In this document: in pieces, positions 2,400 to 23,167 of the stretch
Position numbering within the stretch: position 1 is the first letter of the stretch
Layout of the letters: the number at the start of each line of letters is the position of its first letter
Source of the DNA: Bacteroidales bacterium
GTDB taxonomy: Bacteria; Bacteroidota; Bacteroidia; Bacteroidales; GCA-2748055
Direction: 5' to 3'
Length of the DNA: 26,514 bases
NCBI GenBank assembly: GCA_021740585.1
Contig: JAIOZM010000057.1
Span: 1 to 26,514 of the forward strand
Made by a program: the position numbers and the translations under genes
The notes under the pieces: model-generated
Told to the model about the DNA's origin: nothing
Seen by the model: only the letters and a program-made list of their open reading frames with translations
Database searches by the model: none

Positions 2400-5051
2400 T
2401 TATTCAACAATAGCAACATCATACTCCCGTAACACTTGATTTCTGTGGTGGCCGTTGGTATTCATTTTTTTCTTATGACAAACCTGGCAGTTATCGTGGG
2501 TACCAATAGTTCCAGCCATTCCCTGATATTGCAAAGGCTGCATATTATCCCTTTGCTTACCGTATTTATTCTCAGCACCATAAACAGCGTGAGTAGAACC
2601 ATGACAGGAAATACACATTACACCTTGTTCATCTGTCCGGTTTCTGTATAATTCGCTGAACCCTTCCACCCACAAATTAAAAGCGCTTCCTGAAAACCCA
2701 TCCTCCATCATATTAAAATTGGTATGACAGGATTTGCAATCGGGTTCATGTATCCAGGGGGTACGTGGAATAATGGTCGATTTATCACTTAGCCACTTTG
2801 GTTCAAGGGAAGCTGACAGTCGATCTGCCGATGGCTTTCCGGTTTGGCCGGCAAGCAAGCCTAATGCATGATCCTCTATACGTCCGTGACAATCTGTGCA
2901 TGTCAATCCCGAATTATAGTGACGCCCACGATAACAGGTAGTATTCCCTTCAGGGTGTGAAGGATGACACAAATTACAAGCTTCCTCGTACATATCTGAC
3001 ATATAGTTTGCGTGAAAGCCATGAACGGCAGCTGAGAAATTCAACACATCAGGTTTTCCGGGGGCTCCTACAGCAGGATCCGCATGACAGGATTGACAAA
3101 GCTTAGGATTTCCGGCTTTTGCATCAGCAAGTAAAGTGGTATTATTATATTTGTCATGAGCAGCGAGAATATTTTCGGCTGTTTCATCTGCTACTCCAGA
3201 AATATTATTCCAGGCCCATCCTCCGCCATGGCAGTTCCGACAACCCATTTCTGTTGAAACCGGTGCCACAGCTTTGGTTTCTACAAGCAACCTGCCGGTC
3301 GATTTATCAAATGCCTTAAAAGTAAACATTGGATATGGGTTGAATTTTTGATCGCTTCGGTATGGCAGAACCGGTATTAACTCTGCCGCAAAATGATTCC
3401 CATGAAGATCCATGCTGTCATTCATGCTTTTACCTTTTAATCCTTTCCCCAAAGGAATATCAACACCAAATGTGGCTTTGGAGTATTTCCAGAACATCGA
3501 TCGTTCTTCAGGATTTTCATTTCCACTTTCAATTTCATAAGTAATAATAGCGTCATTTGTTACCAACTCAGGTTTATCACCTCGTTTGAACAGCTGTGCG
3601 TTGAAGGTATTGGCTGGGGGTAAAAAAGTAAAATATTTTTCATTATCGGAAATACAGTGCATTCCCAAATCATTCCATACCAATAAAACATAATCATCAT
3701 CAGCAGAATTGAAAGCCGGTACTTCCAAAGGATATTGTTCAGCAAGATAATCAGGATTCACCATCGTTTCCTTCCCTAAAAGATCCTCATATAAATACGC
3801 TGCAAGAGCTTTCTTTTCAATTTCTGTCCCCGCAAAGGGTGGCATATAGGTATTTACCTTACCCATTCCGGTAAGCTGGGCTTCAATGCCTCGTTTGGTA
3901 AAATTATTGATTAATGGCTTAATAGCATTCCGGCCAGAAATACTGTGGCAGCTCATACACTGCAGCCTGAATATCTCTCTCCCGGCTTCAAGTTGATTTT
4001 CCTCCGTAACTTCATCAATTTCAGCCCATTTAGCCACTTTTAGAAATCCGTTTTCATTGATGATTTCAACATCAGCTGGAGAAATTCCATTCGAATACAT
4101 AGTTTCATAGATCACATAGGGTTTTCTGGCAATTTCACGCATATATTCGAAACCTCCCATCCATGTAAAACTTATTATTACCAGAAAGAAGGTCACCAGC
4201 TTTTGTATGGAAGAGGGTAAACGAAACAAGGTGAAAAGTCCCAATCCAAACAGACCAAAACTCGACAAGATAAGGGCATTGATAAAAAACTTGCTTTCAG
4301 GATTAAAATGGAACAGGTTTTCAAAAGCCTCTGGTGCAATAACTTTGGTGTAATAAATCCCGGTTATAAATAAAACCAATAAAGGGTAATACATCCATTT
4401 GGCACAATACCTGAAAATACGATTCCGAAGTTCAGAATCTTTCAGAAATACTGCTGTTATTAATCCGAAAACACCTGCAAAAACAAATGCTATAGATGTC
4501 CGGAAAAGCAGGGAAGGAATAAAACCAGGGTTGAAAAAGCCGTTCCAGAAATTTCCTGTTTCGATCCATTTTCCCGGTGTAAGCATAAAAGCAAGTATTC
4601 CATTTATTACAAATAAACTCAACCATGCGAAAATAAAGTATAACCATCCTATTTTAACATGATCTTCCGACTTCATCTTCCCAAACCGGTAATGGTAAAT
4701 AAGTAAGGCAACGATTTCAGCAATAAAAAACACCCATTCAATAGCCCATGCAAAAACAAAGTTGTGGATAAGTACAGAAGTTCCACCCGGACCGACCAGT
4801 GCAATGATGAACCATATCCCAACCCCCGAGACACCACCAAAAACCATGGTTAGTAAGAGGAAAAACCATGTATGGGACTGAACATAATTAAGTAATGCCT
4901 GATCGTTTGTTTTTAATGCTTTTCTCTCTGTTAGTACAAGAAATAAACCTCCTCCAACGGCTAAATGAGAAATTACAACATGTAAAATAGCTATGATGGC
5001 AATTAATAAACCACCTCCTGATGCCGGCAAATGCCAAATTGGGTAATTCAT
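2400..5051 (-). CDS. Membrane-integral multiheme c-type cytochrome: N-terminal ~8-TM domain with cytochrome-bd subunit-I-like signature, then a class-I monoheme cytochrome c domain, a ~170-aa beta-rich linker, and a C-terminal heptaheme domain
   Basis: 883 aa, with eight CxxCH motifs counted directly. The monoheme motif is CMSCH at aa 365-369 (nt ~3945-3959), followed by the axial-Met-type YMPPF motif. Seven more (CRNCH 604, CQSCH 652, CNLCH 692, CTDCH 718, CKSCH 772, CISCH 813, CQVCH 855) lie in aa ~600-883 (nt ~2403-3254). The first 310 aa form ~8 hydrophobic helices. TM1 reads H-x8-G (HVVISHLAVGGG) and TM3 reads AIEWVFFIAEIV, with two Glu 8 apart. This resembles CydA H19 and E99/E107, but the bd-like assignment is from memory. 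The start codon overlaps the upstream gene's stop (ATGA at 5048-5051). Confidence 0.75.
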   Translation of the reverse strand: MNYPIWHLPASGGGLLIAIIAILHVVISHLAVGGGLFLVLTERKALKTNDQALLNYVQSHTWFFLLLTMVFGGVSGVGIWFIIALVGPGGTSVLIHNFVFAWAIEWVFFIAEIVALLIYHYRFGKMKSEDHVKIGWLYFIFAWLSLFVINGILAFMLTPGKWIETGNFWNGFFNPGFIPSLLFRTSIAFVFAGVFGLITAVFLKDSELRNRIFRYCAKWMYYPLLVLFITGIYYTKVIAPEAFENLFHFNPESKFFINALILSSFGLFGLGLFTLFRLPSSIQKLVTFFLVIISFTWMGGFEYMREIARKPYVIYETMYSNGISPADVEIINENGFLKVAKWAEIDEVTEENQLEAGREIFRLQCMSCHSISGRNAIKPLINNFTKRGIEAQLTGMGKVNTYMPPFAGTEIEKKALAAYLYEDLLGKETMVNPDYLAEQYPLEVPAFNSADDDYVLLVWNDLGMHCISDNEKYFTFLPPANTFNAQLFKRGDKPELVTNDAIITYEIESGNENPEERSMFWKYSKATFGVDIPLGKGLKGKSMNDSMDLHGNHFAAELIPVLPYRSDQKFNPYPMFTFKAFDKSTGRLLVETKAVAPVSTEMGCRNCHGGGWAWNNISGVADETAENILAAHDKYNNTTLLADAKAGNPKLCQSCHADPAVGAPGKPDVLNFSAAVHGFHANYMSDMYEEACNLCHPSHPEGNTTCYRGRHYNSGLTCTDCHGRIEDHALGLLAGQTGKPSADRLSASLEPKWLSDKSTIIPRTPWIHEPDCKSCHTNFNMMEDGFSGSAFNLWVEGFSELYRNRTDEQGVMCISCHGSTHAVYGAENKYGKQRDNMQPLQYQGMAGTIGTHDNCQVCHKKKMNTNGHHRNQVLREYDVAIVE

Positions 5052-6100
5052 GATTGATTATTTTTAGAAGTTGCTGAAAGTCGTATCATATAATAGAGTG
5101 TAGCTAAACCAACCAGAAATACAATCAGAAATACAATCAATGAAGAAGGTTGGTGGGAGTTTTGCAAATCTGAAGGCCGGAAAATTCCATCGAGGTAAAA
5201 TGCCCGGGAATATTGCCTCACAATAATCATTATCATTACCTGCAGAACTCCTAAAATCAAAGTCAGATTCAGATTCCCCTTGAGACCGGAATAAATAATG
5301 CCCAAAGCACCTATCAATCCAACTGTCATAAAAATGGTGGCAGCCATTTGTCCACCCATAAACATTTTCCATATAACTTCAGGCATGGAAAGCCAAAACC
5401 AGGTTCCAATTATGAATTGTACCATAGTAATAAAAGCTACAATTTTCAGATTACTCTTAATTTGAAGTTCTTTATCTTCTGGAGAAATTTTATTGGAATA
5501 TTTGTAAAACAAGGCCTTACCCAGTGCTGCAATGGCTACGGAAGCAAACAGAAAATGTAAAAAGCGTGGCCATAAGGTAGGCTCATTCCAATGAAGCATG
5601 GTCCCATTGCTGTTGTCGAAATAACCAAGCCAGTCAGCAGGCTTCTGCGCCAAAGTTGAATTATTCACAAACATAAAAGCGATGTACAATAGAAATAATG
5701 TTGAAATGACCAGACTAATTTTTCGCCACCTTACAGAAAAGCTGTTATTTTTCACATAGATATAGGTTCCATAGTAAGCTAAAATCAATAATGGAATAAT
5801 GATAATCCAGTACACAGCCATTAATACCGAACTGCTGTAAAAAAGATGTCCGTAAATTACCTGTAGAAATAATAGAGGCGGTACACCGAGGTTGATTGCC
5901 AATGCTACCATAATAGGGATATTCCCATTAAAAACGTAAAAATCATTAGCTTTATTTTTGCTGAAAAGTGCCAATATACTACCCCCAAGTACAAGATTCA
6001 CTAATATAATGTGCAAAGCAAAAGTGAAAAGTAATAAGACCTGAAACCATTGCCAGGAGACGGGTAAACCGTCAGGAGTTGGAATAAAGGATGTATCCAT
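5048..6100 (-). CDS. Polytopic inner-membrane protein (~8-9 TM), probable partner subunit of the downstream cytochrome; TM1 resembles CydA-like H-x8-G helix
   Basis: 350 aa, almost entirely hydrophobic helices. The N-terminal helix ALHIILVNLVLGGSILAL parallels the first helix of the downstream protein and of CydA. Its stop overlaps the downstream start by 4 nt, implying translational coupling. It lacks the Glu pair seen in the partner. Confidence 0.5.
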   Translation of the reverse strand: MDTSFIPTPDGLPVSWQWFQVLLLFTFALHIILVNLVLGGSILALFSKNKANDFYVFNGNIPIMVALAINLGVPPLLFLQVIYGHLFYSSSVLMAVYWIIIIPLLILAYYGTYIYVKNNSFSVRWRKISLVISTLFLLYIAFMFVNNSTLAQKPADWLGYFDNSNGTMLHWNEPTLWPRFLHFLFASVAIAALGKALFYKYSNKISPEDKELQIKSNLKIVAFITMVQFIIGTWFWLSMPEVIWKMFMGGQMAATIFMTVGLIGALGIIYSGLKGNLNLTLILGVLQVMIMIIVRQYSRAFYLDGIFRPSDLQNSHQPSSLIVFLIVFLVGLATLYYMIRLSATSKNNQS

Positions 6101-6423
6101 AGTTAATTATTTTGTTTATGAATAAATGTAATTAAAAATGAAATGCTTTCAAATAGTTTAGAAATAAAAACTGACAAAAATTTAATTTAGAGTGACTTAA
6201 TAAAGCAATTTCAGATCCATGCTGAAAAAATTTCGTTTTCAATCCGGAACTTCCACTTCCTCAATTATCAAATTAAACAAACTTTTAATTTTCAGTTGAA
6301 TGTAAAAAAATAGCACTCAAAAGAATAAATTGAATATAATAATATTGGCAAATTCATTTTAAGGGTGAATAAAAACAGTACTTTTGGAAAATTTTAGGAA
6401 TCAAATTTTTAAATTTCTTTTAT

Positions 6424-6548
6424 TGTTGTCCGGTAAAACTTATAAAACCTAAAAAGATTGCCGCGCTGCGCTCGCAATGGCTCTGAATGTCAATTGACTA
6501 TGGCTTGCGAGCGTAGCGAAGCAATCTCATATTTTTACCGGACACTAT
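6424..6548. repeat. ~120-nt GC-rich imperfect palindrome (long stem-loop) in the divergent intergenic region upstream of the Ca2+ antiporter gene
   Basis: A perfect 12-bp outer stem pairs tgtccggtaaaa (6427-6438) with ttttaccggaca (6533-6544). A 22-bp inner stem pairs gattgccgcgctgcgctcgcaa (6456-6477) with ttgcgagcgtagcgaagcaatc (6505-6526): 19 Watson-Crick pairs, 1 G-U and 2 mismatches. The apical region contains the palindrome gtcaattgac. Local GC is far above the AT-rich flanks. Confidence 0.6.
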
Positions 6549-6582
6549 TGAATTTCTTTATATTAATTGACTTATTTATTAG

Positions 6583-7695: not shown

Positions 7696-9252
7696 ATGGA
7701 TATTAAAAAAGACGTACAAACAATTGATAATATTGAGTTAGAATTTCTCAAAATTGAGGATTACCCCGAAATAAAACAGGCTATGATTGAGGCATATTCC
7801 AATATGCCAAATTCTTACTGGAAAGAACAACATATTAAAACGCTGATTGACAAGTTCCCGGAAGGACAGGTAGTTATCAAAATCGATAATGAAATAGCCG
7901 GATGCGCACTATCCATAATTGTTGATTACAGCAAGTTTGATAATAAACATACTTATGCTGAAATAACCGGAAATTACAGCTTTAACACCCATACAGCAGA
8001 AGGTGATATTTTGTACGGAATAGAGGTTTTTATCAAGCCACAATTTCGTGGTCTAAGATTAGGTCGTCGTTTGTATGATTACAGAAAAGATTTATGCGAA
8101 CGTTTAAATCTGAAGGGGATTGTCTTTGGGGGCCGAATACCAAATTATCATAAGTATTCCAGCGAAATTTCACCCAGAGAATATATTGAGAAAGTAAGAC
8201 ATAAAGAAATTCATGATCCTGTATTTAACTTCCAGTTATCGAATGATTTTCATCCCAGCAAAATTATTCAGGGCTATCTGGAAGTGGATAAAGAATCGAA
8301 AGAATATGCAGTTCTCCTTAAATGGGATAATGTGTATTATGAGAAAAGCTCAAATAAGGCAGCTAAAGAGAAAACTATAGTCAGATTAGGCTTAATTCAA
8401 TGGCAAATGAGGTTATACAAAAACCTTAATGAGCTTATGCAACAGGTTGAATATTTTGTTGATGCCGTTTCGGGTTACCGCTCTGACTTTGCTTTATTCC
8501 CTGAATTATTTAATGCTCCCCTTATGTCTGAATACAACCATTTATCAGAACCTGAGGCCATTAGAAAATTAGCTGAATATACCGAAGAAATTGTTAAAAG
8601 ATTTTCTGAATTGGCCATAACCTATAATATTAACATTATTACAGGGAGCATGCCGGAAGTGGTTGACAATCAGCTTTATAATGTCGGATATCTTTGCAAA
8701 CGGGATGGAGGTATGGAACGTTTTGAAAAGCTTCATGTAACACCTGATGAAGCAAAAGTTTGGGGATTACAGGGGGGTAACATTATAAAAACATTCGATA
8801 CCGATTGCGGTAAAATAGGAATCCTAATTTGTTATGATATTGAATTCCCGGAATTGAGCAGGTTATTGGCGGATGAAGGAATGAATATTTTGTTTGTTCC
8901 TTTTTTAACCGATACTCAAAACGGCTACTCAAGAGTACGTAATTGCGCCCAGGCAAGAGCAATTGAAAATGAATGCTACGTGGCGATTGCCGGAAGTGTG
9001 GGTAACCTGCCGAAAGTCCACAATATGGATATTCAATACGCACAATCGATGGTTTTTACACCATGCGACTTTTCATTCCCTACCAATGGAGTAAAAGCCG
9101 AAGCAACTCCAAATACCGAAATGATCCTGATTGCCGATGTCGACTTTGATATGTTAAGAGAACTTAGCAAATTTGGAAGTGTAAGAAATCTTAAGGACAG
9201 AAGAACTGATATTTATACAATTATTAAGAAAAATCAGGAGAAGTCTGAATAA
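7696..9252 (+). CDS. Bifunctional GNAT N-acetyltransferase / carbon-nitrogen hydrolase (nitrilase superfamily) fusion protein
   Basis: 518 aa. The N-terminal ~200 aa have a GNAT acetyl-CoA binding motif (RGLRLGRRLYDY, i.e. R/Q-x-x-G-x-G/A). The C-terminal ~290 aa have the CN-hydrolase E-K-C triad context: LGLIQWQM.., LALFPELF (Glu), and GILICYDIEFPE (catalytic Cys in the C-Y/W-D-x-x-F-P-E motif). Confidence 0.8.
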   Translation: MDIKKDVQTIDNIELEFLKIEDYPEIKQAMIEAYSNMPNSYWKEQHIKTLIDKFPEGQVVIKIDNEIAGCALSIIVDYSKFDNKHTYAEITGNYSFNTHTAEGDILYGIEVFIKPQFRGLRLGRRLYDYRKDLCERLNLKGIVFGGRIPNYHKYSSEISPREYIEKVRHKEIHDPVFNFQLSNDFHPSKIIQGYLEVDKESKEYAVLLKWDNVYYEKSSNKAAKEKTIVRLGLIQWQMRLYKNLNELMQQVEYFVDAVSGYRSDFALFPELFNAPLMSEYNHLSEPEAIRKLAEYTEEIVKRFSELAITYNINIITGSMPEVVDNQLYNVGYLCKRDGGMERFEKLHVTPDEAKVWGLQGGNIIKTFDTDCGKIGILICYDIEFPELSRLLADEGMNILFVPFLTDTQNGYSRVRNCAQARAIENECYVAIAGSVGNLPKVHNMDIQYAQSMVFTPCDFSFPTNGVKAEATPNTEMILIADVDFDMLRELSKFGSVRNLKDRRTDIYTIIKKNQEKSE

Positions 9253-11490: not shown

Positions 11491-13290
11491 ATGTATAAGA
11501 TTGAAGCACCTTTTATCAATGGCAAATTCCTTTATTATGCATTTATCGCAGGGGGGAATCAGATATTGCAAAATCAGGTTGAAATTAACCGGATAAATGT
11601 TTTTCCTGTTAATGATAAAGATACTGGCACTAACCTAGCCTCTACTATTCGGTCGGTAATCGATAATATAAAACCTAATAAGTCGTATAAAACAACGGTT
11701 AATAATATTGCCGATGCAGCCCTAATGGGTGCCAGAGGTAATTCCGGGGTTATTTTTGCTCAGTTTTTATATGGTCTGAGCCGCGAAACCAAAAACAAAC
11801 CAATTATTACCCTTACAGAATTCGCTGAAAGTGTAAAAAATTCCATTCCTTATATTTACGAAGCAATCGCTAACCCGGTTGAAGGTACAATGTTAACAGT
11901 TATCAAGGAATGGTCTGACTTTCTTTCCAGCAAAAAAGAAGCAATTCATGATTTTAAGAATATTATTATCGATTCTCTTGCTGTACTGGAAAAATCATTG
12001 GCTGAAACCACTCTGAAACTTAAAGCATTAAATAAAACAGGTTTTGTTGATGCAGGAGCAAAAGGATTTGTTTTATTTATTAAAGGCATTATCGATTTTA
12101 TTATTAACAGGAATATCAGAAATCTGGTTCTTGACTCCCATGAAAATATCTCACTTATTCATTCTGAAGAGATCAGCCATGAAGAAATAGAGCACAGGTA
12201 TTGTACCGAGGCAATTATTAAAAATATTAATGTCAGCAAGGCAGAACTTCAGAAAATACTTAGCAAAAGTGGTGATTCAGTGGTGGTGGCGGGATCAGAA
12301 AGCATTTGCCGTATTCATATACACACCAATCATCCTGCCCGGTTTTTTCACGAATTAAAAGATATTGGAACTATTACTTTTCAGAAAGTAGACGATATGG
12401 TACGCCAGCAGGAAGCCGTTATTAACAGGAAATGGAATATAGCTATTGTAACAGATTCAACCTGCGATTTATCTCAGGAGCTTATTGATTTTTATCAAAT
12501 TAATATCCTTCCTATCAACTTAAATTTTGGTGACAACCACTATTTAGACAAAGTAACGATTCAACCCGAGCAGTTTTATAATTTACTTGAGTCAAATGCC
12601 GAATTCCCAAAATCTTCTCTTATCAATGAACAGGCATTTACAAACTTATACTCGCATTTAGCTTCGCATTACGACGCCATAATAGCCGTGCACCTTACCA
12701 GTCAGTTTAGCGGTACGTATGCAAATAGTCAGAAAGCCGGGGAACGGATTTCCAAAGAATTTAACAAACCGGTTCACGTTATCGATTCTAAAAACTTATC
12801 AGGAGCTCTGGGTTTGCTTGTGCTAAAAACTGCTCAATCGATTGAAGCTGGTGAGTCTCTCGATTCAGTAGTAAAAACTCTTAAAAATGATGTGGCTCAT
12901 TCGAAAATATTTGTAAGTGTAAAGAACCTAAAATACATGATAAAAGGAGGACGTGTTTCCAGACCAAAAGGAATAATAGCCTCAGCCTTAGGACTAAATC
13001 CGGTTATTTCAATAGATGAACAGGGGAAATCACTCCTGTTTGGCAAAACCTTTAGTCAGGAAGCCAGCTTAAATAAAATATACAGCCATATTTTAAAAAT
13101 CAGCGAGGGGAAGAAAATATGGAACCATATTATACTTCATGCCCATAATCCTGAAGGAGCCCAAAAAGCTGAAGAGAAAATGATTCAGATTACAGGAAAA
13201 AAAGCGGTTTCAATTGTCGATATTTCACCAGTTATCGGTATGCATGCAGGAAACGGTGCCATCGCTATCTCATTACTTTTCAATAATTAA
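11491..13290 (+). CDS. Dak2 (DhaL-like) domain fused to DegV-family fatty-acid-binding domain
   Basis: 599 aa. The N-terminal half has DhaL/Dak2 motifs (NDKDTGTNL, close to DGDxGxN, and GARGNSGVIFAQF). The C-terminal half starts with the DegV hallmark IAIVTDSTCDLSQELIDFYQINILPINLNFGDNHYLD, then VHLTSQFSGTY. It starts 8 nt after the DUF2177 gene. Confidence 0.8.
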   Translation: MYKIEAPFINGKFLYYAFIAGGNQILQNQVEINRINVFPVNDKDTGTNLASTIRSVIDNIKPNKSYKTTVNNIADAALMGARGNSGVIFAQFLYGLSRETKNKPIITLTEFAESVKNSIPYIYEAIANPVEGTMLTVIKEWSDFLSSKKEAIHDFKNIIIDSLAVLEKSLAETTLKLKALNKTGFVDAGAKGFVLFIKGIIDFIINRNIRNLVLDSHENISLIHSEEISHEEIEHRYCTEAIIKNINVSKAELQKILSKSGDSVVVAGSESICRIHIHTNHPARFFHELKDIGTITFQKVDDMVRQQEAVINRKWNIAIVTDSTCDLSQELIDFYQINILPINLNFGDNHYLDKVTIQPEQFYNLLESNAEFPKSSLINEQAFTNLYSHLASHYDAIIAVHLTSQFSGTYANSQKAGERISKEFNKPVHVIDSKNLSGALGLLVLKTAQSIEAGESLDSVVKTLKNDVAHSKIFVSVKNLKYMIKGGRVSRPKGIIASALGLNPVISIDEQGKSLLFGKTFSQEASLNKIYSHILKISEGKKIWNHIILHAHNPEGAQKAEEKMIQITGKKAVSIVDISPVIGMHAGNGAIAISLLFNN

Positions 13291-14078: not shown

Positions 14079-14168
14079 TTCTACTTGGGTATAAATCTTT
14101 ACTCATTCTGAGTGAATCTGCGAAACACTCCATACATAAAAGATTTTATTAATCAATCGGAAAATCAA

Positions 14169-14630
14169 ATGGCATTCTATCAGTTTAAAAGAGAACAATT
14201 CATTAAAGCCTCTGTTGAGGAAGTCTGGGATTTTATCTCTTCACCAAAAAATTTAAAAAAAATTACTCCAAAAAAAATGGGCTTTGAAATACGAAATCAG
14301 GATTTGCCCGACAAAGTATACGAGGGAATGATTATTAGTTATAAAGTCCGACCATTATGGAGCATTCCCGTGACCTGGGTTACTGAAATTACTCATGTAA
14401 AAGATAAATCTTATTTTGTTGACGAACAAAGAGTTGGGCCATACAGTCTATGGCACCATCAGCATAGTATCGAAGGCACAGAAAATGGAGTGTTAATGAA
14501 AGACATAGTGAGCTATTGCCCTCCTTTTGGTTTATTGGGTCGTATTGCCAACAAATGGATTATAAGCAATAAATTACATGAGATTTTTGATTACCGCACA
14601 AAAGTTTTGAATAATATATTTCCATCATGA
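14169..14630 (+). CDS. SRPBCC (START/Bet v1-like) ligand-binding domain protein
   Basis: The ORF is open from 14112, but the likely start is the ATG at 14169 (MAFYQFKREQFIKASVEEVWDFISSPKNLKKITP). The size is ~150 aa. The VWDFIS..P.N....P motif is typical of SRPBCC/COG4276-type proteins. This is a fold-level call only. Confidence 0.55.
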   Translation: MAFYQFKREQFIKASVEEVWDFISSPKNLKKITPKKMGFEIRNQDLPDKVYEGMIISYKVRPLWSIPVTWVTEITHVKDKSYFVDEQRVGPYSLWHHQHSIEGTENGVLMKDIVSYCPPFGLLGRIANKWIISNKLHEIFDYRTKVLNNIFPS

Positions 14631-19262: not shown

Positions 19263-19856
19263 TTATTTTCCACTAAGTTTTACTAATAATATGTCGTTGC
19301 CAAGAATTTCAACTATTTCTACAATAGCTCCGGTTTTTATTTCCTCATCATTATCAGTCATTGCTTCAAGTGTTTGTAATCCCTGCACACTTACCTGAAC
19401 TTTTCCAACTCCTGAGCGATTGGCTGGAATACGAAGATAAACACTTGCTACTTTTCCAATGGCATTTTTAACCTTAAGCGTCCCATCATCCACAAGTTTC
19501 CCCATAAAATAAGCAAGTGAAGCCATTATAATCATCATAGCAATTCCAGCAAGGGTGGAAATCAAAATTGAAAGCCCGTTATTTAATCCCCCTGCAAGAC
19601 AAGCTATACCTGTCCATCCAAAAATTGTAAAAAAAGCAATTAAGTTTTTGATACTAAGAAACTGAAAATGAATGCCACTATCCTCTTCTATTGAAGTATC
19701 AACATCACCTTCGGCCTCCATTGTATCTATATCACCAACAAAAAAAGTGATGATAATCTGAATAATAAACATTAGAGAAAAAGGGAGAGCAATACACCAA
19801 TACAGCTTCTCAATAAATTGCAGACCTTGCCATGAATCCGAAATAGATAGTATCAT
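19263..19856 (-). CDS. NfeD/YqiJ-family membrane protein (partner of flotillin), C-terminal OB-fold
   Basis: 197 aa. It has an N-terminal helix, a charged acidic loop, 2-3 further TM helices, and a C-terminal beta-rich segment (GKVQVSVQG...GAIVEIVEILGNDILLVKLSG) typical of the NfeD short form. It sits 20 nt upstream of the flotillin gene in the classic yqiJ-yqiK arrangement. Confidence 0.8.
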   Translation of the reverse strand: MILSISDSWQGLQFIEKLYWCIALPFSLMFIIQIIITFFVGDIDTMEAEGDVDTSIEEDSGIHFQFLSIKNLIAFFTIFGWTGIACLAGGLNNGLSILISTLAGIAMMIIMASLAYFMGKLVDDGTLKVKNAIGKVASVYLRIPANRSGVGKVQVSVQGLQTLEAMTDNDEEIKTGAIVEIVEILGNDILLVKLSGK

Positions 19857-20514: not shown

Positions 20515-20552
20515 AAAAGCTACTTTGTATTTTTAGAGTAGCTTTTGTTTTT
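20515..20552. terminator. Bidirectional rho-independent terminator
   Basis: A perfect 10-bp stem pairs aaaagctact (20515-20524) with agtagctttt (20537-20546) around a 12-nt loop. It is flanked by a T-run on the plus strand (gttttt) and on the minus-strand reading (ttttttct). It begins 4 nt beyond the stop of the minus-strand ferredoxin gene. Confidence 0.65.
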
Positions 20553-21594
20553 AAGGAGCCTTGTACCTTCTCCAAAATGCATATCTGGTTAGGGAGGAGT
20601 AACTTATCAGGAAATTAAAAACCCTGAACCTCAACAAAAAATGCATAATTCTGTAGCCGGAAAATACAATCAACAGCCCTGTGGCTAGTATAATCAGATT
20701 GAAAATCAAATTGTAATTTTGTGATATCCATGCAGAGTTTAACACTTCATATTTAAGGAGTAACTTAATACCTGCATAGGGGATTATAGAAAAAATCAGC
20801 CACCATATCAGAAAAGTAAAGGCATGGGCAGTTTGTATAGCGTTTTTCGGACAATTGTTCATGCATTTCATGCAGCTCTCACATGAAAATGTCCAGTAAT
20901 ATCTGTTGTCAACCAATGTAATGGCCTTCACTGGACAGTTTTTAATGCAAATGCCGCAGTTATTGCACTCACTACTGGCAAAAAAAGTCTTGGCCAGGCC
21001 AAAACGTCCGTAAAAATAATAAGCCAGAGCGACAGGACTTATAGCCAAATCGATGGGCAGGGATAATAATCCCCGGCTTACCCTTTTGCCGGCCATAATT
21101 TTCTCAGAGAATGTATCTATTATTTTTTTACAGCGTGAAAAGATAGATTCCACCACTTTCCTTTTTAGCCCGGGATGAACCGATATCCAGTTTGAAGGTA
21201 AATCAATGGGCCGGTAAGCTCTGATCCTGAACCCCTTAAGTTTTAAAAGTAAGGCAGGGGTTAATAATGCCAATCCACTCAAACCAGGTGTAAATATTTT
21301 ATACAATTTCATACCAGCGCGGGTATTCAAGAGAAACACATCAGATTCTCCCTTTGGAAAATTATTTATAAATTTCAATACAACTGGGGGTGCATTGAAT
21401 CCATGAGTAGGATAACAGAATCCGAGCAAAACATTTGAGCGATATTCAGAAATATTAATTCCTTTAGTATCCGATATATTAACAAGCTTCGACTCCAACC
21501 CCAAATTATTCCCAAATGCAACAATCCACTCAGCAGCTTGTTTTGCATTTCCTGTACCGGAAAAATAATATACAATGATTTTTGTATACTTCAT
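20551..21594 (-). CDS. EFR1-family flavodoxin-like / 2x[4Fe-4S] ferredoxin protein with C-terminal hydrophobic (membrane-anchor) extension
   Basis: 347 aa. The N-terminal flavodoxin motif is IVYYFSGTGNAKQAAEW. Two ferredoxin cysteine clusters are present: CNNCGICIKNCP and CESCMKCMNNCP. The final ~100 aa form 3 hydrophobic helices (FLIWWLIFSIIPYAG..., LIFNLIILATGLLIVFSGY...). Confidence 0.75.
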   Translation of the reverse strand: MKYTKIIVYYFSGTGNAKQAAEWIVAFGNNLGLESKLVNISDTKGINISEYRSNVLLGFCYPTHGFNAPPVVLKFINNFPKGESDVFLLNTRAGMKLYKIFTPGLSGLALLTPALLLKLKGFRIRAYRPIDLPSNWISVHPGLKRKVVESIFSRCKKIIDTFSEKIMAGKRVSRGLLSLPIDLAISPVALAYYFYGRFGLAKTFFASSECNNCGICIKNCPVKAITLVDNRYYWTFSCESCMKCMNNCPKNAIQTAHAFTFLIWWLIFSIIPYAGIKLLLKYEVLNSAWISQNYNLIFNLIILATGLLIVFSGYRIMHFLLRFRVFNFLISYSSLTRYAFWRRYKAP

Positions 21595-21784
21595 AGTCTT
21601 GTGGAAAAATCCAAATATTTAATTCCTAATTAGTTTGAGAAATAGTTTTTTGAAAAACATATAGCAAATATAGAATCTATATCATAACTTTGTATAGAAG
21701 GGAATTAAGTTAAGCATTTATAAAACATTATACGCTTTGTTTTTGTTAAGAAAATATAACGACTCACAATTTAAAACTATTATT

Positions 21785-23167
21785 ATGAAAAAACTAATTC
21801 TGCTTTTAACAATCTCCAGTTTGTTTTTGGTAGCATGTAAAAAAGATAAGGATGAGAATCCTGAACCATTCAGCCAACTCACTGTGGAACAAAATAAGGA
21901 AGTGATTGAAATCGCTGGTATTGAAATGGTGAATACTATGGACGACATGAAAGATCTGGACGCAATTGAAGTATGCGTTAATCTTGCTGAAACTCTCGAT
22001 TCTGCTGACCCTACAGCTTCCAAGCCCGGAAAAAAATCAAAGTTAGCCTATACCGTCGACGCCATCGCCGGAATAGCTTCCGATGATTATGAATTTAATG
22101 CCTTTTTTAACGACATGAAATATGGTGTGGAAATCGAAGATCCTGAAAGCATACAGGATTTGTGGGAAGAAATAGTGGGAACCTATACATGGAACTCAGA
22201 AATGCAGGATTGGGATTATTCTGAAAACAGCTCTGAGGTAGTATTATTGTTCCCTGCTATGGACAACAGCACAAGCAATGATGGCAAATTAAGGATCTAT
22301 GGGTATATGGGTGTATTTATGAATAATCCTCTCGATGATGAATACTCCGGAGACCTTCCTACCGATATTGCTTTTGAAATAAGTGTAAATAATACTGTTC
22401 TTGTCACTTATACCTTTGGCGTCAACTATAATGAAGAAGGAATTCCTTCAGCTTTGGCAAGCGACCTGTCAATTCCTCCATTTAAATGGGAAGTGGATAT
22501 GACTAATAATGATACAGATGTTACACTGAATTATAAATTCACCCATAACAACGAAATTGTTTTAGAAGTAGGTGGCGGAGCAAAGGGTTTATTTACCCAG
22601 GCTAACGTGGATGCAAATACGGTTTTAGTAACAGACACATATTACTATTATGACTGGGTTTATAATCCTATGACCGGATATTACGAAGAGGTTCTGGTTG
22701 AAGGAATCGATGAGTGGGAAGAAGTTGAATTTGAAGAGATTATTAACTCTTCTGAAGCTCACTTTCAAATGTTCAACATCTTAATTAATGGAGAGGTGAA
22801 TATTAAAGCTCTTGTTGATCAGATTAGAATAATTGAAGATGCTGAGACCGAAGACTGGACTGATGCTGATTATACCAAAGAAACTGAGGATATTGTAGTT
22901 GAAATAAATAAAAATATCAACCTCAGGGTTATTAATGCTGATGATAATAGCAAGATTGCTGAAATTGAAGCATATGTTGTTACCGAAACAAATTCATGGG
23001 GTGAAGATAGCTGGATAGATTTCAGGTTTGTTTTCAGTGATGGCTCAACCATTGATGCAGAAACCTATTTTGATGAGGGTTTTGAGAATTTTGTGGATGA
23101 AATTAATGCACTTATCGCAGATATTAATGCGGAATATGATGCTAATATAGATCCTATTGATTACTAG
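21785..23167 (+). CDS. Highly acidic (Asp/Glu-rich) lipoprotein of unknown function
   Basis: The ORF is open from 21737, but the likely start is the ATG at 21785. That start gives MKKLILLLTISSLFLVACKKD, a lipoprotein signal with lipobox LVAC. The mature protein is ~440 aa and extremely rich in D/E with repeated DxD/ExE patches. No recognisable catalytic motif. Confidence 0.6.
   Translation: MKKLILLLTISSLFLVACKKDKDENPEPFSQLTVEQNKEVIEIAGIEMVNTMDDMKDLDAIEVCVNLAETLDSADPTASKPGKKSKLAYTVDAIAGIASDDYEFNAFFNDMKYGVEIEDPESIQDLWEEIVGTYTWNSEMQDWDYSENSSEVVLLFPAMDNSTSNDGKLRIYGYMGVFMNNPLDDEYSGDLPTDIAFEISVNNTVLVTYTFGVNYNEEGIPSALASDLSIPPFKWEVDMTNNDTDVTLNYKFTHNNEIVLEVGGGAKGLFTQANVDANTVLVTDTYYYYDWVYNPMTGYYEEVLVEGIDEWEEVEFEEIINSSEAHFQMFNILINGEVNIKALVDQIRIIEDAETEDWTDADYTKETEDIVVEINKNINLRVINADDNSKIAEIEAYVVTETNSWGEDSWIDFRFVFSDGSTIDAETYFDEGFENFVDEINALIADINAEYDANIDPIDY

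Follow-up and report, generated by a model that had tools for sequence, protein, structure and literature searches.

What does a chain of eight c-type hemes do when it is fused to a membrane domain resembling the catalytic subunit of cytochrome bd oxidase? The question is raised by a two-gene operon in a 26,514-nucleotide contig of a Bacteroidales bacterium (assembly GCA_021740585.1, contig JAIOZM010000057.1), the whole of which is referred to here as the window. The operon lies on the minus strand and consists of an open reading frame (ORF) of 350 amino acids (aa) encoding the small subunit, OR-C1b (positions 5048 to 6100), and an ORF of 883 aa encoding the large subunit, OR-C1a (2400 to 5051). 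The two ORFs overlap in an ATGA stop/start sequence (5048 to 5051), read as a site of translational coupling. An earlier interpretation made without database searches (the sequence-only reading) had described the ORFs and their overlap exactly as they are found here, and it proposed a quinol-oxidizing module of a kind not recognized before. Judged by its residues, profile matches, and predicted folds, the operon is an OR-C1-type member of the cytochrome bd superfamily, encoding a heterodimer of two CydA paralogues. The function that we favor, with a probability of about 60%, is that periplasmic electrons would pass through the c-hemes to a bd-type O2-reducing site.

The cytochrome bd superfamily was split into qOR, OR-C, and OR-N by Murali, Gennis & Hemp (2021). 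According to their definitions, OR-C1a is a CydA homologue with 8 transmembrane (TM) helices, without a quinol site, and with a C-terminal periplasmic heme c extension, and OR-C1b is its adjacent paralogue, which is stated to have 8 TM helices and lacks the proton-channel glutamates. The large protein of the window has 8 TM helices in its structural model and 8 CxxCH motifs. All 11 OR-C1a signature residues given in Supplementary Table 6 of that survey (H24, E105, E112, S145, H131, Y119, Y121, V77, W80, L153, and F183) are found at identical positions in it, and it is 75% identical over its full length to the Draconibacterium orientale protein (L001). Supplementary Table 7 of the same survey gives D. 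orientale FH5T_03790 as an 8-heme OR-C1a and its "hypothetical protein" neighbor as a 0-heme OR-C1b. The operon is therefore an ordinary OR-C1 member. The sequence-only reading was right in suspecting one of the c-heme-fused branches noted in phylogenomic surveys, although the complex was not unrecognized, the Draconibacterium pair having been named in the 2021 supplement.

Compared with the OR-C1 pairs of D. orientale (FH5T_03790) and Desulfovibrio senegalensis (WP_151150981.1), the window operon has the same two-gene order, 8-TM domain, 8-CxxCH extension, and signature residues. The partner is likewise a heme-free paralogue without the proton-channel glutamates, and nothing essential differs. 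In comparison with the published tables, the window partner has 9 rather than 8 predicted TM helices and keeps the equivalents of H19 and H186 of Escherichia coli CydA, and the large subunit has a candidate for E445 (E306). The features of a canonical quinol-oxidizing bd oxidase, namely the heme b558 ligands of the catalytic subunit, the Q-loop, and CydB with CydX/S/H, were not found in the pair, and the NCBI entry that is 100% identical to the large protein is named [quoted passage not shown]. The locus adds no new architecture and is of a known, biochemically uncharacterized kind.

The CydA-like domain of the large subunit covers aa 1 to 310 (4122 to 5051, minus strand). Within it, aa 17 to 231 match PF01654 (Cyt_bd_oxida_I) at 29.0 bits, above the gathering score of 26.2, the match spanning only profile positions 6 to 230 of 418. 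Homologue P0014 matches the same family at 41 bits, and most of the 120 closest homologues have a precomputed PF01654 match. The AlphaFold2 model (predicted local distance difference test score [pLDDT], 79.8) has 8 TM helices in the membrane domain and the two four-helix bundles of the CydA fold, and its top 20 Foldseek matches in the PDB are all bd oxidase chains, with CydA ranking above CydB. The models of both proteins and alignments A1 and A2 lack Met1, so that numbering in them equals the true number minus 1; true numbering is used throughout this text. A search of the PDB with the profile of the full large-subunit family returned only Geobacillus CydA at an E value of 0.26, a weak result explained by the close relationship of the sequences from which the profile had been made. 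The sequence-only reading had left the choice between a bd-like and an NrfD-like domain to profile and fold searches, and these placed the membrane domains in the cytochrome bd superfamily. An NrfD/PsrC-like assignment was rejected on the Foldseek result, NrfD not being the best match, and membership of a transporter family was considered and rejected as well.

The key residues of this domain are H24, E105, E112, Y119, H131, S145, and a motif formed by E302, R305, E306, R309, and P311. An hhalign comparison with E. coli CydA pairs H24 with H19, E105 with E99, and E112 with E107. Conservation was counted in 74 large-subunit homologues from about 10 phyla and in 68 small-subunit homologues. H24, H29, E105, E112, Y119, and S145 are invariant in the large-subunit set, in which H96 is conserved at 99%, F183 at 97% (Phe in 72 of 74), and H60 at 95%. 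The H-x8-G helix that had been noticed at the start of both membrane domains is present in both (H24..G33 in the large subunit and H30..G39 in the small subunit). The glutamates described earlier as AIE-x7-E are in fact spaced as E105-x6-E112, and the x6 spacing is a hallmark of the non-qOR1 branches of the superfamily (Murali et al. 2021). Ungapped motif scans of the E105/E112 and F183 regions against E. coli CydA did not score above shuffles, which for the E105/E112 region is expected because of a 1-residue indel.

At the end of TM8, the invariant motif F301-E302-x2-R305-E306-x2-R309-x-P311 scores highest at one site of E. coli CydA, residues 435 to 453, pairing E306 with the heme b595 ligand E445, R309 with R448, and P311 with P450. 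The match scored 19.2, with 7.9 for the next best site and a shuffle p of about 0.02 to 0.04. The motif region was noted at window positions 4131 to 4166 (aa 296 to 307) and is shared by the homologues L001 to L080. E306 is thus tentatively put forward as a candidate equivalent of E445, a residue that was scored absent in OR-C1a by the 2021 survey (Murali, Gennis & Hemp 2021). The complete conservation of H24, E105, E112, and S145 across about 10 phyla, together with the TM8-end match, argues that the active site and the proton path are under strong selection.

The quinol site is a different matter. The position of the heme b558 ligand H186 of E. coli CydA is occupied by F183, no Met equivalent to the other b558 ligand, M393, was found in the large subunit, and the Q-loop is absent, the TM6-TM7 loops being about 15 residues long in the AlphaFold2 models of both subunits. 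The retention of the O2-site and proton-channel residues beside these losses runs against the earlier description of the module as quinol oxidizing. The positive-inside rule applied to the sequences, combined with the obligatory periplasmic location of c-hemes, places the N termini of both proteins outside the membrane, as in CydA.

In comparison with canonical CydAB (E. coli bd-I, 6RKO; Geobacillus thermodenitrificans, 5DOQ/5IR6), the operon shares the H19 ligand, the E99/E107/S140/H126 channel, and a pseudosymmetric heterodimer of related subunits with the N terminus outside the membrane, and the x6 glutamate spacing also occurs in Geobacillus. However, the catalytic subunit of the window is without b558 ligands and Q-loop and has eight covalent c-hemes added, and its chain ends in the periplasm because TM9 of CydA is absent. 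In addition, its partner is a CydA paralogue keeping two histidines, whereas canonical CydB is heme free; genes for CydX/CydS/CydH and cydDC are not near the operon, and the electron donor is presumably periplasmic rather than quinol.

The 350-aa protein (5048 to 6100, minus strand) contains no cysteine, and all 68 of its homologues are without CxxCH. Pfam and NCBIfam searches gave no match for it, including none to a CydB profile, and its family profile found nothing among PDB sequences even at an E value of ≤10. In contrast to these sequence searches, an hhalign comparison of cross-phylum profiles aligned the small subunit with the membrane domain of the large subunit at 96.7% probability (E = 3.2e-10), with 284 columns in register. 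The AlphaFold2 model (pLDDT, 78.2) has 9 predicted TM helices and finds bd oxidase CydB and CydA chains as its best Foldseek matches. The estimate of about eight TM helices for both proteins in the sequence-only reading therefore holds for the large subunit and not for the small one. By profile alignment and predicted fold, the 350-aa protein is a heme-c-free CydA paralogue in the CydB position. The operon had been said to lack a recognizable CydB, a statement that needs correction, as the OR-C1b partner occupies its place.

Two invariant histidines of the small subunit correspond to heme ligands of E. coli CydA in motif scans: H30 (6011 to 6013) maps to H19 with a p of about 0.006, and H182 (5555 to 5557) maps to the heme b558 ligand H186 with a p of about 0.03. 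The latter mapping agrees with the hhalign register, in which H182 lies opposite F183 of the large subunit. No Glu occurs at the E99/E107 positions (TM3 contains no Glu), and an ungapped scan of the TM8 end of the small subunit against E. coli CydA was not above shuffles. The two paralogues appear to have divided the features of CydA between them, and the small subunit may bind a b-type heme itself, unlike canonical CydB.

The periplasmic part of the large subunit begins with a class I monoheme cytochrome c domain (aa ~340 to 425; 3777 to 4034, minus strand). Exactly eight CxxCH motifs are present in the protein (aa 365, 604, 652, 692, 718, 772, 813, and 855), one belonging to the monoheme and seven to the heptaheme part, as had been counted from the sequence, and they take up 16 of its 19 cysteines. 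Of the 74 homologues, 73 have exactly eight such motifs, and all seven heptaheme motifs are kept in 73 of 74. PF13442 (Cytochrome_CBB3) matches aa 353 to 420 with 29.6 bits against a cutoff of 27. The heme site is C365-x2-C368-H369, with M403 of a YMPPF motif as distal ligand, and C365, C368, H369, and M403 are all 100% conserved, which bears out the earlier class I assignment. In a profile search of the PDB, the domain matched CcoP, cytochrome c6, and QcrC. The principle of a class I His/Met heme c, on its own or together with multiheme partners, that would relay periplasmic electrons to an oxidase is also shared with heme-copper or NrfD-type systems, as the PF13442 and CcoP matches illustrate, but the catalytic core of the window protein is of the unrelated bd type, with no copper site and no iron-sulfur subunits.

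The monoheme is followed by a beta-rich periplasmic domain (aa ~445 to 600; 3252 to 3719, minus strand) carrying the motif WNDLGMHC. AlphaFold2 predicts strands across aa ~453 to 594 at a pLDDT of around 90, in agreement with the beta-rich insert that had been predicted there. W459, G463, and D469 are conserved at ≥97%, M464 is conserved at 95%, and Foldseek found no significant PDB match for the domain. The heptaheme domain (aa ~601 to 883; 2403 to 3251, minus strand) contains seven CxxCH motifs and matches Pfam Cytochrome_C7 and c3_2, and the generic multiheme Pfam families (c7 and c3) match aa 600 to 722. Eight histidines outside the motifs are invariant or nearly so (H632, H677, H680, H711, H728, H821, H868, and H869). 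They suffice for bis-His ligation of all seven hemes, and no open catalytic c-heme is therefore evident. NCBIfam gave only weak matches of the DmsE, NrfH, NrfB, and HmcA types for this module, and no CxxCK motif exists in the 883-aa protein. A catalytic multiheme role, such as that of NrfA, HAO, the octaheme reductases, or MccA, was rejected in view of the generic and weak c3/c7/NrfB/NrfH/DmsE-type matches, the lack of CxxCK, and the presence of eight His for seven hemes.

The beta-rich and heptaheme module (aa 430 to 883) matches 1,133 representative protein clusters. Its recurrence in stand-alone and cell-surface proteins suggests that it is a general extracytoplasmic electron conduit, not an enzyme. 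Homologue P0014 matches PF22113 (MtrC/MtrF domains II/IV) with 42.5 bits against a cutoff of 30, and the stand-alone relatives P0241 and P0250 match it at 35 to 36 bits; the window protein itself has no PF22113 match at an E value of ≤1. The combination of a beta-rich domain with multiheme c is shared with MtrC/OmcA-type proteins (beta-barrel plus pentaheme), the module also being carried by surface proteins sorted by the type IX secretion system (T9SS). Nevertheless, the window module has seven hemes against five per unit, is periplasmic, and is fused to an inner-membrane oxidase-like domain, and it falls below the PF22113 threshold and has no structural match in the PDB by Foldseek.

Among the module matches, P0250 (481 aa) is a TM-anchored, stand-alone beta-rich and heptaheme module. 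In the large surface-type proteins P0311, P0321, and P0376, the module is N terminal, with Ig-like, DUF11, CARDB, or fn3 domains as its fusion partners; P0376 combines the module with a T9SS C-terminal sorting tail. These surface-type proteins may be multiheme cytochromes that are secreted by Bacteroidota.

The protein collection contains more than 3,800 relatives of the large protein, and a genome scan showed that at least 584 species-representative genomes, spread over about ten phyla, encode one, counted as the full 8-heme form; Murali et al. (2021) had found 532 OR-C genes among 24,706 genomes. The best 80 relatives, 44 to 75% identical over the full length, represent Bacteroidota, Calditrichota, Ignavibacteriota, Kapabacteria, many Desulfobacterota, Gemmatimonadota, Fibrobacterota, and several candidate phyla. 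In 67 of 71 evaluable loci of other genomes, the small gene directly precedes the large one on the same strand, and among those 67 loci the two genes overlap by exactly 4 nt in 30 and by 1 nt in 12. No third gene is conserved across 80 loci. A Pfam census of 128 flanking genes showed sensor kinases, PsiE, and TonB-dependent receptors; partners in respiration, cytochrome maturation, or oxidative stress were not among them, and the neighborhood check that the sequence-only reading had recommended, for ccm genes or terminal reductases, likewise found none linked. With only two genes conserved, the operon is autonomous, as is expected for a terminal oxidase that draws on a common pool of donors and whose acceptor diffuses freely.

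A gene for a PsiE-family membrane protein (~150 to 170 aa) adjoins the operon in some loci, mostly directly upstream of the small-subunit gene (7 of the 128 neighbors). Loci with a PsiE-type neighbor are L024, L028, L029, L030, L034, L043, L050, and L054, from Ignavibacteriota, Kapabacteria, and Calditrichota.

The favored function can be set out as follows. The large subunit keeps the first four-helix bundle of CydA, with an oxygen-reduction site made up of H24 (= E. coli H19), E105, and probably E306 (= E445), and the same bundle holds the cytoplasmic proton channel (E105, E112, S145, and H131). The b558 ligands and the Q-loop have been lost, and on the periplasmic side their place is taken by the His/Met monoheme, the beta-domain, and the seven-heme chain. 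Periplasmic donors, such as the low-potential cytochrome c pool and other periplasmic redox proteins, would load the heptaheme wire, from which electrons would pass to the higher-potential His/Met heme c, a stand-in for heme b558, and on to a buried b595/d-type heme pair that would reduce O2 to water with cytoplasmic protons. Drawing electrons from outside and protons from inside would generate a membrane potential, as in canonical bd oxidase, and the small subunit, OR-C1b, takes the CydB position and has no proton channel. In physiological terms, the complex would probably allow sediment bacteria that are largely anaerobic to scavenge O2 with high affinity or to respire micro-aerobically.

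Since the large subunit has no quinol site but an invariant O2-site His and invariant proton-channel Glu residues, an inward flow to O2 is favored over quinol oxidation. The inward direction is further supported by the strict conservation of the cytoplasmic channel, by the resemblance of the monoheme domain to CcoP and cytochrome c6, a type that feeds oxidases, by the expected order of potentials (low for bis-His hemes and higher for His/Met), and by the many aerobes and microaerophiles among the carriers of the wider OR-C family. OR-C carriers include Hydrogenobacter, Thermocrinis, Chitinophaga, Thiomonas, and Thiomicrospira, and the same oxidase reading was proposed, as a hypothesis, by Murali et al. 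(2021).

Several points weigh against an oxidase fed from the periplasm. A literature search found no paper with biochemical, genetic, or expression evidence on any OR-C enzyme, and papers on cable bacteria leave the role of a similar CydA-cytochrome fusion unresolved and also consider the opposite direction of flow. The heme potentials are assumed from ligand types, and the AlphaFold2 models, which cover single subunits free of cofactors, do not show how far the monoheme would lie from the active site. A PDB search with the profile of TM5-8 found no bd oxidase, only chance matches (telomerase and viral rhodopsin), and the pairing of E306 with E445 rests on a short motif at the shuffle p given above. 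The two heme-ligand histidines retained by the small subunit are left unused by the oxidase model, and most carriers are anaerobes equipped with further means of handling O2. A search by locus tag (Dde_0291, FH5T_03790, and others) returned nothing, and a 2026 paper on a bd oxidase structure only cites the OR-C classification. In accordance with the sequence-only reading, which had stated that none of the surveyed c-heme-fused branches has a known function, no demonstrated function of an OR-C enzyme was found in the literature.

In a first alternative, the view of the sequence-only reading, menaquinol would be oxidized in the membrane module, and its electrons would leave by way of the eight c-hemes for acceptors in the periplasm or outside the cell. 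In its favor, the small subunit keeps the equivalents of both H19 and H186, the latter being a b558 ligand that adjoins the CydA quinol site. The MtrC-related heptaheme module is also carried by surface proteins that T9SS secretes, a setting suggestive of outward transfer, a CymA-like direction has been proposed for the CydA homologue of cable bacteria, and O2-related genes are not linked to the operon. We nevertheless consider such an exporter unlikely. The Q-loop is missing from both subunits and both b558 ligands from the large one, and the invariant channel (E105, E112, and S145) and H24 would have no obvious role in quinol oxidation. Moreover, outward electrons would probably face an uphill step at a His/Met heme c that separates the membrane from a bis-His wire, and genes for an outer-membrane conduit or a terminal reductase are not co-conserved.

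The cable-bacteria protein, "CydAh", has been presented as distantly homologous to CydA, with a periplasmic cytochrome c domain at its C terminus and no canonical CydB beside it, and its role has been debated between O2 reduction and quinol:periplasm transfer. That literature has also speculated on a reversible valve. In a related scheme for OR-C1, the complex would be a three-way redox junction connecting the quinone pool, the periplasm, and O2 reversibly. More than a passive substitute for CydB, the small subunit, with its H19-type and b558-type (H186) histidines, would act as a heme-binding cytochrome b with a quinone-reactive, b558-like site, and the heptaheme chain would bridge it to the O2 site of the large subunit, since the two membrane subunits would be too far apart for direct electron transfer. 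We regard this junction as distinctly unlikely.

A further possibility retains the architecture and the inward flow of the favored oxidase and replaces O2 with H2O2, NO, or another small molecule as the oxidant at the buried heme. Canonical bd oxidases react with H2O2, NO, and peroxynitrite, the carriers of the operon are mostly anaerobes, and thioredoxin (3 of 128) and glutaredoxin (2 of 128) occur among the neighboring genes. However, the active-site residues are the same as those of O2-reducing bd oxidases, and no regulatory or pathway gene linked to the operon indicates a specific alternative substrate, which leaves a different oxidant improbable. Still more doubtful is a Qrc-like cytochrome c:menaquinone oxidoreductase, in which low-potential periplasmic electrons would reduce menaquinone with cytoplasmic protons in an energy-conserving redox loop: the many sulfate and sulfur reducers in the family have large periplasmic cytochrome c3 pools, the CydB position of canonical bd oxidase binds a structural quinone, and the cytoplasmic channel would suit quinone reduction, yet the conserved residues are O2-site heme ligands (H24 and E105 or E306) rather than a known quinone site, aerobes also carry the family, and the His/Met heme c would probably be too high in potential to reduce menaquinone.

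If the oxidase reading is true, the OR-C enzymes would add a third type to the cytochrome-c-dependent terminal oxidases, one that uses a copper-free bd scaffold, and would explain how many "strict" anaerobes, perhaps including cable bacteria, reduce O2 with periplasmic electrons. OR-C is widespread, yet the literature search found no member that had been purified or knocked out; cultured carriers that make the question tractable are D. orientale and Desulfovibrio alaskensis G20 (Dde_0291 and the gene upstream of it). The "missing CydB" is here an unannotated CydA paralogue encoded upstream that retains two heme-ligand histidines. Papers on cable bacteria have argued that the fusion cannot be a complete oxidase since CydB is missing. 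This argument merits a recheck, as the OR-C1 partner is an unannotated "hypothetical protein" immediately upstream. The search with the small subunit gave 1,737 Desulfobulbaceae-type matches, none of which was named Electrothrix or Electronema.

Upstream of the operon, a divergent intergenic region of 482 bp (6101 to 6582) is presumed to contain the promoter. Scans of 6101 to 6582 for sigma-70 promoters and terminators were no better than chance, the Bacteroidota-type TAnnTTTG motif was not found on its minus strand, and no Rfam family matched in the window. The operon is flanked by genes for a GH43 glycosidase and for a Na/Ca exchanger. None of the remaining window genes is respiratory; this check agrees with the neighbors (a GH43 gene and a Ca2+ antiporter) and the lack of respiratory genes reported from the sequence.

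Elsewhere in the window, three ORFs had no Pfam match at an E value of ≤1e-5 (14112 to 14630, plus strand, 172 aa; 19263 to 19856, minus strand, 197 aa; and 21737 to 23167, plus strand, 476 aa), and the Pfam matches of a 347-aa protein (20551 to 21594, minus strand) are to 4Fe-4S ferredoxin-type cluster motifs only. In a 518-aa protein (7696 to 9252, plus strand), a GNAT acetyltransferase region at the N terminus is joined to a carbon-nitrogen hydrolase domain of the nitrilase superfamily. A 599-aa protein (11491 to 13290, plus strand) combines Dak2, FakA-middle, and full DegV domains and looks like a fusion of the A-type and B-type (DegV/FakB) components of fatty-acid kinase.

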